Positions 13,175-41,700 of a stretch of DNA of 42,513 nucleotides are shown here, piece after piece (within the stretch, counting starts at the first letter, position 1; every line of letters begins with the position of its first letter). The translations under genes were made by a program, and so were the position numbers. The stretch lies in contig JAITKW010000066.1 in assembly GCA_031278275.1 (NCBI GenBank), positions 1 to 42,513 on the forward strand, written 5' to 3'. This DNA comes from Candidatus Nomurabacteria bacterium (GTDB lineage Bacteria; Patescibacteriota; Saccharimonadia; Saccharimonadales; Saccharimonadaceae). The notes under the pieces are model-generated. The model saw nothing but the letters and a program-made list of their open reading frames with translations, made no database searches and was not told the origin of the DNA.

Positions 13175-13299
13175 TTTTTCTCCTTTAGTTTACTATTTCG
13201 TCAGCCAAATTGTTAAGGTTTGGTTACCAAAATAAGACATTTTCCTGCGTAGCAAATTAAGTCAATTCTTGACAGCTACGGTCTTCGGTAACTGTCCAT
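13175..13299 (-). promoter_or_regulatory. Structured 5' leader of rplJ (possible L10-leader-type autoregulatory element)
   Basis: The approximately 120-nt leader contains the hairpin GACAGUUACCGAAGACCGUAGCUGUC (13271-13297). Alternative pairings are possible (CGUAGC/GCUACG and GUUACC/GGUAAC), and a GGAG SD follows. No covariance evidence is available. Confidence 0.3.
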
Positions 13300-13328
13300 A
13301 TAATAACACAGCAAAAAATAAAATGCAA
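13300..13328 (-). promoter_or_regulatory. Sigma70-like promoter of rplJ-rplL
   Basis: The minus strand reads TTGCAT-17 nt-TATTAT with an extended TGt. Confidence 0.55.
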
Positions 13329-13335
13329 TATAAAA

Positions 13336-13352
13336 GAATGGGTAACAAGACT
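13336..13352 (-). repeat. Short inverted core copy of the GGTCTTGTT...CCCATTC motif family
   Basis: The minus strand reads AGTCTTGTTACCCATTC. It lies 7 nt upstream of the rplJ -35. Confidence 0.4.
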
Positions 13353-13427: not shown

Positions 13428-14513
13428 CTAATTATAAACATTTTCCACTTTTACGCTTGGACCCATTGTGGTGGAAATGCTGACGGATTTGATAAAGACG
13501 CTTTTGATGGATGCGGGTTTTTGGTTTTTTAAGCTGTTCATGAAAGACTCGGCATTTTCCAGCAACTTGTCCGTTCCGAAGCTGACTTTGCCCACAACGG
13601 TGTGGATAATTGACTGTTTATCCACGCGATATTCAATTTTCCCAGCTTTGGCTTCCGTAACGGCTTTTTTAATGTCGGCTGTTACCGTTCCGGCTTTTGG
13701 ATTGGGCATTAAGCCTTTCGGGCCAAGTAGCCGCGCGTATTTGCCGAGTTTTGGCATATAGGCGGGTGTGGAAATCAAAACATCAAAGTCCAAGTTTTCC
13801 TTGTTTAGCATCTGCAACAACTCCTCATCTCCGGCGAAATCGGCACCCGCCGCTTTGGCGAGTTTTGCTTGATCGTCTGGTGCGAACACCGCTACTTTGA
13901 CAGTTTTGCCAGTGCCGTTTGGCAAAGAAACGGTTGAGCGAATGTTTTGGTCGGCTTGTCTTGGGTCAACGTTCAGGCGAACGTGGATTTCCACGGTAGA
14001 GTCAAACTTGGTGGTGGCGGTTTTAATTACCAAGTCCAAAGCGTTTTTCAAATCATAAGTTTTGGTTTTGTCCACCAATTTGGCGACCGCCTGATATTTT
14101 TTCCCACGCCGCTCAACTAGCGGTCTGGCAACGGGTTTCTGACCTTTCTTAACTTCCTCTTCCGCCAATTGCTTATTGATTTTGGCTTTTTCTTTACGCT
14201 GAGCCTCAGCCTTTTCTTCCTCAATGACTTTTTTGCTTCTTTTGCCAGCTTTAGCAAAGTTTTTTTCGGTTGATGTTGTGGTTTCGGTGTCATCAGCAGT
14301 CGCTTTTTTGGCGGGAGTTTCTTCTTTAGCGACCTTTTCTCTGGTTTTTGTTTCTTCCTTAGCGACTTTTTCTCTGGTTTCGGTTTTTTTCTGAACGGCT
14401 TTTTCTTTGGTTTTAGTTTCTTTAGCGGGTACCGAATCCTTAGCGCCCGTGGCGGCGACTGGGGTTTTGGCGACCTCATCTTTCGTGTTAGTGGTTGTGG
14501 CTTTTTTTGCCAT
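13428..14513 (-). CDS. rplA: 50S ribosomal protein L1 with an N-terminal Lys/Glu/Thr-rich extension of about 135 aa
   Basis: The canonical L1 core starts at [21 protein letters not shown] (227 aa to the end). The start ATG 14513 (MAKKATTT) is preceded by AAAGGA. The track start at 14591 would run over the promoter. Confidence 0.9.
14326..14391 (-). repeat. Imperfect 33-bp tandem duplication inside the L1 N-terminal extension
   Basis: The plus strand has ttagcgaccttttctctggtttttgtttcttcc followed by ttagcgactttttctctggtttcggtttttttc. These encode (K)[10 protein letters not shown] twice. Confidence 0.8.
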
Positions 14514-14572
14514 TTCTATCCTTTCTGTGGTAATAGCGCGACTTTCGCTCCCAACATTGATTATTTTCACCA

Positions 14573-14601
14573 AGTTTATCCCAAAAAGCATGTTTTGTCA
14601 A
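14573..14601 (-). promoter_or_regulatory. Sigma70-like promoter of rplA
   Basis: The minus strand reads TTGACA-17 nt-TAAACT. A leader of about 55 nt with a GGGAGCGAAAGUCGCGCU hairpin region precedes the SD. Confidence 0.5.
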
Positions 14602-14605
14602 ATGG

Positions 14606-14677
14606 ATCTTGTTACATAACCCCCCATTCACGGGTACAAAATTGTAACAGCCGGCCATAGACACGGAGCCGTGACAA
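14606..14677 (+). repeat. Copy 'A' of the intergenic repeat family (motif plus imperfect hairpin)
   Basis: atcttgttacataaccccccattcacgggtacaaaattgtaacagcc is about 79% identical, by hand alignment, to the minus-strand 5' half of the 37965-38100 element. On the minus strand the hairpin is followed by UUUU, so it may also terminate recA. Confidence 0.7.
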
Positions 14678-14682
14678 CCGAC

Positions 14683-15711
14683 TTATGCGGGGCTAGTCAT
14701 GCTTTTACGCACCTTTTGTTCAATTTCGTCAAGCGAGCTTGGCTTGTCTTTCAAGAATTGTTTGGCGGCTTCGCGTCCTTGCCCGATGTTTTCGTCATTG
14801 TATTTGTAAAATGCGCCAGATTTTTGCACCACATCTTTTTCCACCGCCAAATCCAACACATCGCCGGTTTTGGAAATGCCCTCGTTATACATGATGTCAA
14901 ACTCCGCCAAACGGAACGGTGCTGAAATTTTGTTCTTGACGACTTTGACTTTAGTGCGATTGCCAATAATATCTTCGCCAGATTTGATTTGACCAATACG
15001 GCGAATGTCCAAGCGCACCGAAGCGTAAAACTTAAGTGCGTTGCCACCGGTGGTGGTTTCCGGATTGCCGAACATTACGCCAATCTTCATACGGATTTGG
15101 TTGATGAAAATCACGGTGCTTTTGGTTTTATTGATGATGCCGGTTAACTTGCGCATAGCTTGACTCATTAAGCGGGCGTGCAAGCCCATGTTGGAATCTC
15201 CCATGTCGCCGTCAATCTCCGCTTGTGGGGTCAAAGCTGCCACCGAATCCACCACAATCAAGTCCACCGCACCGGAGCGTACCAAGTTTTCGCAAATCTC
15301 CAATGCTTGTTCGCCGTTATCGGGCTGGGAAATCAACAAGTTTTCGGTATCCACGCCTACACGGCGAGCGTACGCCGGATCCAAAGCATGTTCTGCGTCA
15401 ATAAAAGCACAAGTGCCACCTTGTTTTTGCATTTCAGCAATTGCATGCAGGGTTAAGGTGGTTTTACCGGAACTTTCCGGCCCATAGATTTCAATAATCC
15501 GCCCCTTGGGATAACCGCCACCAAGCGCCAAATCTAAGGACAGCGCGCCCGAATGCAAAAGCTCCACGTCCACCTTGTGTGTTTCGCCAAGCTTCATGAT
15601 GGAGCCGTCCCCAAATTGCTTTTTAATCTGTTCAATCGCCAAACTTAGGGCTTGTTTCTTGCCCGCATTGTCCTGTTTCTCGGGTATTTCTTTGGTTGTC
15701 TTTTTCGCCAT
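14683..15711 (-). CDS. recA: Recombinase RecA
   Basis: 342 aa with [16 protein letters not shown], Walker [21 protein letters not shown] and VVDSVAAL. Confidence 0.97.
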
Positions 15712-15782: not shown

Positions 15783-15834
15783 GGTCTTGTTGCATAACCG
15801 AGACAAATATCCAACTTCTCGGCGTGCAATCAAG
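15783..15834 (+). repeat. Motif-family copy forming a 15-bp interrupted hairpin between rpsI and recA
   Basis: ggtcttgttgcataacc is followed by CTTG/TTGCA/CCGAGA ... TCTCGG/TGCAA/CAAG pairing. aattgtgaca recurs at 15851-15860. Confidence 0.5.
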
Positions 15835-22148: not shown

Positions 22149-22160
22149 GGTCTTGTAAGG
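22149..22160 (+). repeat. Core fragment of the motif family (ggtcttgtaagg)
   Basis: The minus strand reads CCTTACAAGACC, 8 nt upstream of the TTGACT -35. This is the same arrangement as at rpsL. Confidence 0.35.
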
Positions 22161-34644: not shown

Positions 34645-34685
34645 TATAAAATTGGGTTTTGTTGCATAATTATTCAACAAAACCC
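34645..34685 (-). terminator. Hairpin terminator after fusA
   Basis: The minus strand reads GGGUUUUGUUG-AAUAAUUAUG-CAACAAAACCC (11-bp stem) followed by AAUUUUAU. Confidence 0.6.
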
Positions 34686-37792: not shown

Positions 37793-37910
37793 TGATTAAA
37801 TAAGAAAACTTGTTTCTTCCTTTCCTTAATTATTACGCTTGAAATAAACCCAAACGTGATTTTAATAATATAAATCACAGGTGACGAAACCAGCAACTTT
37901 TCGTCCCCGC

Positions 37911-37946
37911 TTGAAACTCTTTATCAAGATGTTATCAGAGTTTCAA
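37911..37946 (-). promoter_or_regulatory. Perfect 10-bp inverted repeat bracketing the rpsL -10 (operator-like)
   Basis: The plus strand has ttgaaactct (37911-37920) and agagtttcaa (37937-37946), separated by 16 nt that contain the -10 hexamer. Confidence 0.4.
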
Positions 37947-37957
37947 AAAGATGTCAA
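37929..37957 (-). promoter_or_regulatory. Sigma70-like promoter of rpsL-rpsG-fusA
   Basis: The minus strand reads TTGACA-17 nt-TGaTAACAT. A leader of about 130 nt contains two 7-bp hairpins (GACGAAA/UUUCGUC and GUGAUUU/AAAUCAC). Confidence 0.6.
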
Positions 37958-37964
37958 TAGCACT

Positions 37965-38100
37965 GGTCTTGTTGTGTAACTACCCATTCACGGGGCTCTT
38001 TAATCTGTGACGACAGATTAAAGCGAGGAATTGCCTGACACCAATAACGATTGGCTGTCACAATTCCGTACCCGCGAATGGGTAGTTACACAACAAGACC
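37965..38100 (-). repeat. 136-nt palindromic element: 30-bp outer stem enclosing two hairpins (three-way junction); MITE/REP-like element or structured RNA
   Basis: Arms 37965-37994 and 38071-38100 are complementary at 29/30 positions. The single mismatch becomes a U:G wobble only in the minus-strand transcript. The inner hairpins are 37998-38023 (11 bp) and 38028-38066 (16 bp with bulges). Confidence 0.8.
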
Positions 38101-38178
38101 CCACACATCAAAATGAGTAATTACGCGACAAAACTCCGTGTATTAAACCCTGCGAAAAAAGAATTATGCGACTAGTTT

Positions 38179-38718
38179 TTACAAATCTACCACTGCGTCT
38201 TCGGTGGCGAGGTCTTCGCCCCTTATGGCTTCGGTGATGTCGTCAAAATCTTCATCTTCGGTAAAATCGTCCACGACCGCCATTTTGTTGGACTTTACGC
38301 CAGTGCCAACGGGGATTTTACGCCCAATAATCACATTTTCTTTGAGTCCGACAAGACGATCGACTTTGCCAGAGATGGCGGCAGAAATCAGGACGCGGGT
38401 AGTGTCTTGGAAAGAGGCGGCAGACAAGAAACTGTCGCTGTAAATCGCTACTTTAGTGATACCAAGCAATAATTGGTTGTATTTGCAAGGAGTTTTGCCC
38501 GCTTTTTCCAATTTTTCGTTGGCTTTGATGGCGGAGGATTTGCTGACAATGTCGCCAATGATGAAGCTGGAATCGCCCGCATCTTCAATCATCACCCGAC
38601 TAAACATTTGCCGAACGATGATTTCAAGGTGTTTGTCGGAAACTTCTTGCCCCTGCGCTGCGTAAATCCTGAGAACTTCGTTGATAATGTAGCGTTCGGT
38701 AGCTTCAATGCCTCTGTA
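38179..38718 (-). CDS. rpoC: RNA polymerase beta-prime, C-terminal 179 codons, in frame with and immediately downstream of the TAA at 38719-38721
   Basis: YRGIEATERYIINEVLRIYAAQGQEVSDKHLEIIVRQ-MFSRVMIEDAGDS..LLGITKV..SFLSAASFQDTTRVL..GLKENVIIGRKIPVGTG. The first ATG is at 38607. There is no ATG, GTG or TTG between the stop and that ATG. Confidence 0.75.
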   Translation of the reverse strand, partial: YRGIEATERYIINEVLRIYAAQGQEVSDKHLEIIVRQMFSRVMIEDAGDSSFIIGDIVSKSSAIKANEKLEKAGKTPCKYNQLLLGITKVAIYSDSFLSAASFQDTTRVLISAAISGKVDRLVGLKENVIIGRKIPVGTGVKSNKMAVVDDFTEDEDFDDITEAIRGEDLATEDAVVDL

Positions 38719-41700
38719 TTACATCAAATCAAGTAGGTTCAGCGAACCTGCGGTCAGGCGGTCACCAGCTTTCACTGCGCCACCGGATTTAACCACAATC
38801 TCCACTTCATCAGGCACCTCAATTTTGACGGGAGCTGACGTGGCACCCACAATCACGATTTCGTCATCATTGGCTTGTTCTACTACGCCATCAATAGGGG
38901 CAACGAGCGGTGCTTTGTCGTCAGATTTGGCGGCGATGATGTCGCCCACGCGCACGGCTTTGCCGTTTTTGACTTTCATCTTGCGACCGTCAAGTTTCAA
39001 ATGTTCTATCTTGCCAGACGAGGGAGTAACTTGGATTATAAAGCGTTTGCCATCTTCCCAAACTTCCACCATGCCGTCAATTGGCGATACGGTGGCTTGA
39101 CCTTTCGGCGTTCGGGCTTCAAACAATTCTTCAACGCGTGGCAAACCTTTAGAAATGGCACCGGAACCAGCCACACCGGACGAGTGGAAAGTGTCCAAAG
39201 TCAACTGCGTGCCAGGTTCGCCGACTGATTGCGCCGCAATCACGCCGACTGGTTGGTTGGCTTCCACCAATTTTTTGGTTGACATATCCAGGCCATAACT
39301 TTTCTTGGACACGCCGTCCAAGTTTTTGGTGGAGAGAATGCTGTAGATTTTTACGCTGTCCACGCTCTCATCATCTTCAATTTCGTCCGCAATCTCACGT
39401 GTGATTAGCTCGCCAGCCTCCACATGCCCAGATACGGTTTCGGCAGCATAGCGCCCAGCCAAACGGTTGGAAAACTCAATCATAGTCAATTCAGTTTCAT
39501 TACGATAAATCGTAAAGCCCTCATCTTCGCCCTCTTCGTTGGTCGTGAAAACATCTTGCGCAACATCAACCAAGCGTCTGGTCAAATAGCCCGAGTCGGC
39601 CGTCTTGAGAGCGGTTGAAACTAAGCCTTGCCTTGCGCCACGTGTTGCCACAAAAGATTCCAGCAAAGACAAGCCTTTTTTGAAATTGGAGCGAATGGGC
39701 AGTTCCATCTCGCGACCATTGACATCAACCATAATTCCAATCATCGCAGAAGCCAGTTTGATATTTGACACGGTGCCACGTGCGCCAGAGTTGACCATTA
39801 AACTGATGTTTGTGTCAACGCTGTCAATTCTGGTTTTCAAAAGGTCGGAGATTTTGTTGTCAACGTTGCGCCAATTGGCAACCGTCAAGTTATGGCGCTC
39901 TTTGTTGGTAATCAACCCCTCGTTATATTGCTCAGCGATTTGTGCCGCTCGCCCCGTACCCTCCGCCACCATTTCAGCCACTTCCGGAAAGTCAACATAA
40001 TCGTCTTTGGATGTGGACACGCCCGCAATCGTTTCGTACTTGAAAGACAAAGCCTTAACCGCATCGGCAATTTTCACGGTCATATCGGCACCATATTTTG
40101 CAAAAATCTTGTTCATGACTTTTTTCAATTGTTTTTTGGTTTGAGCCGAATTGTCAAAGGGATAATCTTCCGGCAATACCTCGTTGAACAGCACTCGCCC
40201 AAAAGTGGTTTCGCGCATTTCACCTTTGAATGGTAATTTAATGGGAGATTGTAGTTGGATTTTTTGATTGTCATAAGCCATCTCAGCTTCATAAACTGAA
40301 GAAAAAGTTTTCAAATCGCCCTTGATTTTGCTGTAAGTGAGGTAGTAAATCCCCAGTACCACGTCTTGTTCAATAGATAAAACCGGCGCGCCGTCAGCGG
40401 GTTTTAATAAATTGTTTACCACACTAATCAAGCCCCCGGCTTCTCTTTGAGCGTCTTCGGATATGGGCAAATGCACCGCCATTTGGTCACCGTCATAGTC
40501 CGCATTGAAACCTTTAGCGACCAACGGGTGCAATTGAATGGCTTGACCGTCAATTAACTTCGGCTGAAAGGCTTGAATGGAGAGCTTGTGGAGGGTCGGC
40601 GCACGGTTAAGCAACACGTATTTGTTAGTAATCACTTCGTCCAAGCCGTCCCAAACCACCGCCTCGTTGGATTCTATCATGTGGTTGGCGTTTTTGATGT
40701 TGTTGGCGTGTTCGTTGCGGATTAACCACGAAATCACGAACGGCCTGAACAGCTCCATCGCCATTTGTTTTGGCAAACCGCATTGATTGATGTTTAGCTC
40801 AGGCCCAACCACGATGACCGAGCGCCCAGAATAATCCACACGCTTGCCCAGCAAGTTCTGGCGGAAGCGACCTTGTTTGCCTTTTAGCATATCAGATAAA
40901 GATTTCAGTTGGCGTTTGTTGTTGGACGATTTGGCGGTACGGTTGCCATGCGTGGCGGAGTTGTCAATAAGGGAATCAACCGCTTCTTGCAACATGCGCA
41001 TTTCGTTACGGCAAATCACGTCTGGAGCGTTCAAGTCCATCAGTTTTTTCAGGCGGTTGTTGCGGTTGATGACACGGCGATATAAATCATTGATGTCTGA
41101 GGTGACGAAACGCCCGCCCGCTAGTGACACAATTGGACGCAAATCTGGCGGAATGACAGGAATAATTGTCAACATTAAATCAGCTGGCTTAATCCCCGCT
41201 GAGCGCATACCTTCCATTACTTTCAACCTTTTGACCAGTTTTTTCTCTTTTTGACCGCGTGCGCTTTTCGCGGTCTCGGTCAATTCCTCAATCGTTTTGT
41301 CAATATTGATTTCGTCCAGCAACTCTTTGATAGCCACGCCACCCATGCCAACCTTAACCAAATCTTCATATTCTTCCGGCAACTCCGCTTTTTCAGATTC
41401 AGTCATTAAACTGTATTTATTTAACTTGGTCAACCAATTTTTTCTTTCCGTATAATCGGTCTCCAAACTTTCCACCTCTTCGGCTTGGGCTTCCGCTAAA
41501 GCCTTGATGTCCGCATTTTTATCTTTAGCAGCGTCTTCGTAACGGATTTTGATAGCTTCGCGCGCCGCTACAGTTTGGGCTTCCAGCTCCTTGAGTTTTT
41601 GGTCTTTGGCCTCATCATCAACGGAAATAATCACAAAACTGGCAAAATAAATCACTTTTTCAATATTTTTCACCGTCATGTCGAGCAAAAGACCGATAGC

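Follow-up and report, generated by a model that had tools for sequence, protein, structure and literature searches.

The sequence at positions 14605-14652 (plus strand), located between recA and rplA, is probably a truncated and mutated half-copy of a 136-bp MITE belonging to a clade-specific family, whose intact representative lies in the rpoC-rpsL spacer at 37965-38100. The window, meaning the whole contig of 42,513 nt (42.5 kb) analysed here, is the only part of the source genome covered by the copy counts that follow. On the minus strand it displays the gene order rpoB, rpoC, rpsL, rpsG, fusA, tuf, the S10/spc/alpha ribosomal-protein clusters, rpsI, recA, rplA, rplJ and rplL, and nearly every gene beyond about 2.8 kb is encoded on this strand. 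The names recA, rplA and rpsL, assigned in the original prediction from the sequence alone, are borne out by Pfam. The nearest homologues of RpsL and RecA are labelled Candidatus Saccharibacteria or, mislabelled, "Nomurabacteria"; the host of the window is a member of the Saccharibacteria (TM7/CPR). P0121 was rejected as an unrelated high-GC RpsL.

The half-copy is formed by a 30-nt terminal repeat and 18 nt of interior sequence, with the outer end, at 14605, turned towards the rplA promoter. A second copy of the 37965-38100 element between recA and rplA had been proposed on the basis of a gapped alignment with about 37 of 47 identical positions. The copy is real and the homology holds, but the gap is not needed: positions 14604-14652 (+) align ungapped to the minus-strand 5' half of the intact element with 39 of 49 identical positions, and an nhmmer search of the window with the full element recovers the half-copy at E=2.2e-4. 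The window contains the arm pattern TCTTGTTRYRTAACNNCCCATTCRCGGG three times, at 14607-14634 (+), 37967-37994 (+) and 38071-38098 (-), and none of 100 dinucleotide shuffles contains it, which answers the question of whether the similarity is any better than that found in shuffled controls. All single-base differences had been described as transitions; this is true for nine of the ten mismatches, while the remaining one is a transversion. Such a bias (binomial p=3.6e-4 against the unbiased expectation of 1/3) is the pattern predicted by descent through point mutation, indicating that the similarity reflects true homology. Furthermore, the homology extends 18 nt beyond the inverted repeat into the interior, and thus the half-copy derives from the full element and is not a free-standing motif. 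The same sequence is also present in contigs independently assembled by Logan from run SRR14710901 (L003, L008). The solo half-copy is probably inert, without a function of its own.

The extent first proposed for this copy, 14606-14677, is correct up to position 14652, where the homology stops; the last 25 nt belong instead to a hairpin at the 3' end of recA. This hairpin (14649-14683, minus strand) covers the recA stop codon, has a predicted energy of -15.4 kcal/mol with a z-score of -2.5 and includes G-U pairs; it is not homologous to the element and overlaps the inner end of the half-copy by 4 nt only. The idea that both copies continue into a conserved hairpin has to be abandoned, since the region 14636-14684 (+) folds like its shuffled versions (z +0.37) and the whole spacer has a z-score of about 0 on either strand. 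A conserved hairpin in the solo copy was accordingly rejected, as it folds no better than shuffles on both strands; for the full element, the first internal hairpin is supported (z -3.2).

The intact element, on the minus strand, has arms at 38071-38100 and 37965-37994, each of 30 nt and 97% complementary to one another, separated by 76 nt that contain two internal hairpins (38027-38067 and 37998-38023). Its predicted single-strand fold is a three-way junction, composed of a 30-bp closing stem and the two hairpins, with an energy of -86.5 kcal/mol and a z-score of -12.6. No ORF of at least 80 aa is found inside 37965-38100, no transposase gene is encoded within the 42.5-kb window, and an autonomous partner element was not found. 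A target-site duplication is not recognisable at either the full copy or the solo copy of the window. Rfam 15 gave no match for the whole window at the gathering score and, for the element alone at E up to 10, only a chance-level match (E=0.76), while blastn of the element against plasmids and phages returned nothing but a 22-nt chance match.

Besides the full copy and the half-copy, the window contains at least five shorter derivatives, all of them, like the two longer copies, intergenic. The rpoC 3' UTR holds, on the minus strand, a stack of two degenerate arms that share one orientation. The first (38106-38135) is a terminal repeat oriented as the left arm, with 19 of 30 identical positions, 8 transitions and 3 transversions, hence at most 3 purine/pyrimidine mismatches, where 0.2 such matches per window are expected; it contains GTCGCGTAATT. 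The second and weaker one (38149-38178), just 3' of the rpoC stop, has 16 of 30 identical positions and 10 transitions, and contains GTCGCATAATT. The pattern GTYGCRTAAYT has three matches in the window, against 0.18 expected. A 16-nt terminal remnant, GTTATGCAACAAGACC, is found at 15783-15798 (-), 15-16 nt upstream of the recA -35 box, and the corresponding pattern GTTAYRYAACAAGAYC is matched four times in the window and never in shuffles. In the rplA-rplJ spacer there is an arm fragment with an internal deletion, TCTTGTTACCCATTC, at 13336-13350 (-); the pattern TCTTGTT-N(0-12)-CCCATTC has four matches, against 0.01 expected. Finally, 5 nt after the fusA stop codon, at 34654-34685 (-), two termini are joined to form a mini-hairpin, GGGTTTTGTTG-10 nt-CAACAAAACCC, which has 15 identical nucleotides, TTGTTGCATAATTAT, in common with the terminal repeat of the element of a sister species and matches the IS6/IS26 terminal-repeat consensus at 12 of 14 positions. 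The outermost 8 nt of the arm, ACAAGACC, also occur at 22149-22156 (-), 8 nt upstream of a TTGACT box preceding secY, a stretch too short to call; five of the six ACAAGAYC matches in the window are intergenic.

The rpoC gene itself contains an in-frame TAA at 38719-38721 (-), in the context …LLDLM*YRGIEATERY…, after which the reading frame stays open for 179 more codons up to the stop at 38179. In the relative L011, RpoC is a single uninterrupted protein of 1290 aa, and an error in sequencing or assembly, or else a strain variant, is the most likely origin of the TAA; a truly split rpoC is less likely. An exact sequence look-up of the 142-aa ORF for the RpoC C-terminus gave no match.

Protein-guided retrieval provided loci from a sister species (L004, L011, L092, L093) and from a third species (L010, L094). 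Sequence of the sister species is available from run SRR14710916 and from JGI 3300042648. Its proteins are 96% (RecA), 96% (RpsL) and 83% (RplA) identical to those of the window. Its locus L092 carries, 186 nt downstream of recA, an element of 150 nt with the same architecture as the 136-nt one; the arms can be read as 22 nt with perfect (100%) complementarity or as 32 nt with one indel, and the predicted fold has an energy of -85.8 kcal/mol and a z-score of -11.1. The 9-nt direct repeat CAAAAATCC abuts this element at both ends; it contains an 8-nt repeat, and the 9-nt reading keeps the ends in register. This repeat looks like a target-site duplication, which is a hallmark of DDE transposition. 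The terminus of the sister element, GGTATTGTTGCATAATTAT, has 15 identical bases in common with the fusA mini-hairpin, 11 with the recA-upstream remnant and 11 with a third-species fragment that abuts a TTGACT box. Similarly, TTGTTGCATAA occurs six times in 84 kb from the three close species, always in intergenic positions, and is absent from 508 kb of more distant loci.

Comparison of the syntenic intergenic regions, a check that had been proposed together with the original prediction, revealed presence/absence differences at conserved promoters. In the sister and third species, the promoters and 5' leaders of rpsL, rplA, recA and rplJ align with those of the window and the element is absent at those sites, the homology starting at the -35 box or a few bases upstream of it. 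The recA-upstream remnant is missing in both species, where the recA promoter is conserved; likewise, the rplA-rplJ fragment is missing in the sister species, where homology starts at the rplJ promoter. The spacer between recA and rplA also differs in gene content: that of the sister species (L092, 9042-9990) contains a 143-aa ORF (orf143) together with its own full element, while that of the window (14514-14682) has neither orf143 nor the other half of the element. In the third species a different gene follows recA, and a gene for an SLH-domain protein is found between rpsI and recA. Both sides of recA are thus a hotspot for the turnover of genes.

In the Logan assemblies of two species, three contigs begin or end within an element (L008 at position 1, L093 at its end, 9250, and L004 at position 1). 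These breaks are consistent with a multi-copy or heterogeneous repeat in those samples, low coverage being the alternative. In the third species, a hairpin at L094 5595-5652, with 26-nt arms that are 85% complementary, is located at the called start of an SLH-domain gene and contains GCCCATTCTGGG, which resembles CCCATTCRCGGG of the window arm; either kinship with the family or chance may account for it.

For scans of larger collections, the window-type arm pattern was defined as TTGTTNNNTAACNNCCCATTCNCGG. It has no matches in GTDB species-representative genomes or in IMG/VR; two matches in JGI metagenome contigs were both rejected as chance occurrences in eukaryote-like sequence. An approximate search for the arm, allowing up to 9 mismatches in 91 loci, 80 of which were RpoC-based GTDB loci, found nothing beyond the source organism. 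A literature search on MITEs in Saccharibacteria returned no paper. As far as can be judged from these sequence collections, the element family is confined to a narrow clade of Saccharibacteria, with its spread documented in two to three closely related species.

The termini of the family correspond to GGTnTTGTTGCATAA, about GGTnTTGTTGCATAAyTA. The terminal-repeat consensus of the IS6/IS26 family is GGTTCTGTTGCAAA, in which G1, G2 and G7 hardly ever vary, G10 is strongly conserved and variation is mostly found at positions 3-4 (PMC6807381). The termini described here agree with it at 9-12 of 14 positions, their variation falling at positions 3-5; six of the nine well-supported ends retain all four of G1, G2, G7 and G10, while the solo copy, the right end of the sister element and the L094 fragment do not. 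Sequences with up to 3 mismatches to this consensus are found nine times anywhere in the 42-kb window against 7.8 expected, i.e. at background level, so that the match counts only because it is located exactly at the ends of the element. The ends of all copies read GGnnnTG, a feature common to the IS1 family and to most IS6/IS26 members (PMC6807381); the IS1 family combines it with duplications of 8-9 bp (PMC10425158). Both the GGnnnTG ends and the 9-nt duplication at the sister element fit this family. Beyond GGnnnTG, the ends presumably match IS1 less well than they match the IS6/IS26 consensus.

Some of the known IS6/IS26 derivatives are MITEs, such as MITEBth2 and MITEHarch3 listed by ISfinder (PMC6807381), which are like the present element in their small size, lack of an ORF and inverted ends. 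However, the usual IS6/IS26 duplication is 8 bp, compared with the 9 nt flanking the sister copy, and the consensus spans 14 bp, compared with arms of 30-32 nt; moreover, the host here belongs to the Saccharibacteria (CPR). Members of the IS6/IS26 family delete adjacent DNA, thereby losing one copy of the duplication (PMC6807381); this behaviour would fit the window copies devoid of a duplication and, as we infer, also the outer end of the solo copy, which lies exactly where orf143 of the sister species is missing. Given the high background of matches, the end match is only suggestive, and an IS6/IS26-like or IS1-like origin of the element is therefore treated as likely but unproven.

As it encodes nothing, the element would be moved in trans by a DDE transposase produced elsewhere in the genome, which would recognise the conserved 14-19-nt termini; these termini and the 8-9-bp flanking duplication would point to an enzyme of the IS6/IS26-like or IS1-like type. 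In compact genomes, copies would persist only in the dispensable bases between the end of a gene and the next -35 box, and the surviving ones would then decay through transitions, truncation and internal deletion. The proposal of a dispersed mobile or REP-like element is, as far as mobility is concerned, well founded: it is backed by the terminal inverted repeats, the lack of an ORF, the occurrence of copies in various states, from full to truncated or decayed, in two to three closely related species, the presence/absence differences at conserved loci, the 9-nt repeat at the sister copy and termini that fit a transposase-end consensus.

Small elements of comparable organisation are known from other bacteria. 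Correia elements (CREE/NEMIS) of Neisseria are similar in being about 100-200 bp long, with long terminal repeats, no ORF and an intergenic location, often just upstream of genes; according to a review, transcribed Correia copies form RNase III substrates (PMC10969869). Their sequences are unrelated to the element described here, and they possess their own promoters and IHF sites, whereas in the window the promoters are outside the element and older than it. Correia elements duplicate a TA target. The mini-hairpin after fusA and the arms stacked behind rpoC resemble the pneumococcal SPRITE, RUP and BOX and the enterobacterial ERIC sequences, SPRITE being, at least by the name given to it, a rho-independent-terminator-like element (PMC10969869). 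All of these differ from the present family in sequence, host and ends, and the fusA hairpin has no canonical terminator call. An integron attC site was also considered. The core-box consensus of such sites is RYYYAAC and GTTRRRY; by reading, GTGTAAC and GTTACAC are each one position off this consensus, pairing continues for 9 bp past them and no integrase is found nearby, and this candidate was rejected.

The position of the copies relative to promoters was part of the original prediction. Both minus-strand strings quoted there are correct: the half-copy ends 3 nt from the rplA -35 box and the full element 7 nt from that of rpsL. The rplA promoter-like site, TTGACA-17-TAAACT (14573-14601, minus strand), and that of rpsL, TTGACA-17-TAACAT (37929-37957, minus strand), both match at 10 of 12 positions; the former is conserved in the sister species and the latter in L011 and L010, in all cases with no element upstream. 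Judging from this conservation, both promoters are ancestral and do not depend on the element. An outward hybrid promoter originating from the terminal repeat was rejected, as no -10 box can be read at the right distance. All five window pieces are located 3-18 nt upstream of a -35 box, in spacers of 55-221 nt; if placement is taken as uniform, the p-value combined by Fisher's method is 0.06 for the five together and 0.03 when only the first four are considered. A promoter-proximal insertion preference thus stands as a weak trend, too weak to be claimed with spacers as short as these, and survival only in the dispensable bases of a compact genome accounts for the proximity equally well.

Two 5' leaders are conserved. 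The rplA leader (14514-14572, minus strand), …gaaaataatcaatgttgggagcgaaagtcgcgctattaccacagaaagg…, is nearly identical in the sister species although RplA is only 83% identical, and has no Rfam match; it may be an L1 autoregulatory site. The 130-nt rpsL leader (37793-37928, minus strand) is conserved in two relatives and includes an inverted repeat, GAAACTCT…AGAGTTTC, that brackets the -10 box. The stretch 13223-13306 (-) matches the Rfam L10 leader below the gathering score of 44, at 35.3 bits (E=0.0012); as its sequence is strongly conserved in the sister species, a true though divergent L10 leader is probable here. At its N-terminus, RplA is extended by about 130 aa (14130-14513, minus strand), among which Lys, Glu and Thr abound, and which are partly encoded by 33-nt tandem repeats at 14319-14419; this extension is common across the clade, where homologues have 300-386 aa, while the gene caller assigned only 246 aa to RplA of the window.

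Several other explanations for the repeats can be weighed against these data. The second interpretation offered in the original prediction, a shared cis-regulatory module for translation-gene operons, would make the 30-nt arm an operator or UP-like site for a regulator coordinating ribosomal-protein promoters. In its favour, arm termini precede four -35 boxes on the coding strand, at distances of 3, 7, 7 and 15 nt; yet these spacings are not helically consistent, one of the sites belongs to recA, which is not a translation gene, one fragment is oppositely oriented, the copies are of unequal length and have decayed to different degrees, and the proximity trend reaches only p=0.03-0.06. The arm is absent at all four sites in the sister species, which has the same promoters and leaders; the lack of the element at conserved promoters of relatives leaves a conserved regulatory module unsupported, and we regard this interpretation as very unlikely. 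A somewhat different proposal is that a structured RNA at the 3' end of rpoC, acting as terminator, insulator, RNase III site or small RNA, has been selected and kept for its fold, and that duplication, not transposition, gave rise to the other copies. The very stable fold (z -12.6), the co-orientation with rpoC and the fact that the sole arm mismatch becomes a G-U pair in the minus-strand RNA agree with it, as does the lack of a canonical terminator between rpoC and the rpsL promoter, a position where the relative L015 has one. Against it, Rfam gives no family even with E allowed up to 10, the fold of the plus strand is about equally good, the stem is not followed by a U-tract, the solo copy does not fold, and the flanking 9-nt duplication and transposase-like ends are left unexplained. 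As a replacement for transposition we find it unlikely; a structured-RNA role is, however, compatible with a domesticated MITE, and is not truly exclusive of the best explanation.

Within the class of mobile elements, a REP/REPIN sequence mobilised by a RAYT (IS200/IS605-like) transposase would account for a short extragenic repeat and for an inverted doublet forming a long hairpin of about 136 nt. A single arm, however, is not palindromic and folds like shuffles (z +1.3 and +0.14), some copies do not have the conserved 5' GTAG, the ends fit the DDE-type GGnnnTG, and the 9-nt duplication flanking the sister copy is unexpected for single-strand transposition of the RAYT type, so this origin appears highly improbable. 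Coincidence or low-complexity sequence might be invoked for some of the fragments, which are short, but with the full arm pattern absent from shuffles, the nhmmer E-value of 2.2e-4 and the same sequence recovered in the independent assemblies L003 and L008, the probability of a chance resemblance is close to nil. A truncated and mutated half-copy of a MITE remains the preferred reading of 14605-14652.

Regardless of how it arrived, an intact copy could influence the transcripts in which it is embedded. A scan for intrinsic terminators identified none on the minus strand at 37965-38100, 14605-14683 or 34654-34685. The element is co-oriented with rpoC, no canonical terminator separates rpoC from the rpsL promoter and L015 possesses one there; for these reasons, a role of the intact copy as a transcript-end barrier or RNase III target is plausible, by analogy with Correia elements (PMC10969869). 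Intact copies would put a stem of about 30 bp at the 3' end of read-through transcripts, that of rpoBC in the case of the window, and this stem could impede 3' exonucleases or recruit RNase III; behind fusA, the collapsed mini-hairpin may act as a terminator-like stem. A more extended scenario, which we consider a long shot, is that the element is targeted to, or kept in, the A/T-rich stretch upstream of -35 boxes, that intact copies and their hairpin derivatives have been recruited to insulate essential operons from one another or to stabilise 3' ends (rpoBC|rpsL, fusA|next gene, recA|rplA), and that IS6/IS26-type deletions starting from element ends have shaped gene order, orf143, lost between recA and rplA, being an example.

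The element is most probably a MITE, a known kind of mobile DNA, here in an under-studied phylum, and no general principle is changed by it. It accounts for local breaks of synteny and of assembly, and its repeats could act as strain markers. It also recommends caution, in that repeated motifs adjacent to promoters should not be read as regulatory before relatives have been checked. The intact copies represent a concrete candidate site for RNase III processing or transcript insulation in Saccharibacteria. The finding bears on the amount of mobile DNA that reduced CPR genomes tolerate; it suggests that non-autonomous transposons have been active, as a family, within the ribosomal-protein gene region of a reduced and symbiotic CPR genome.
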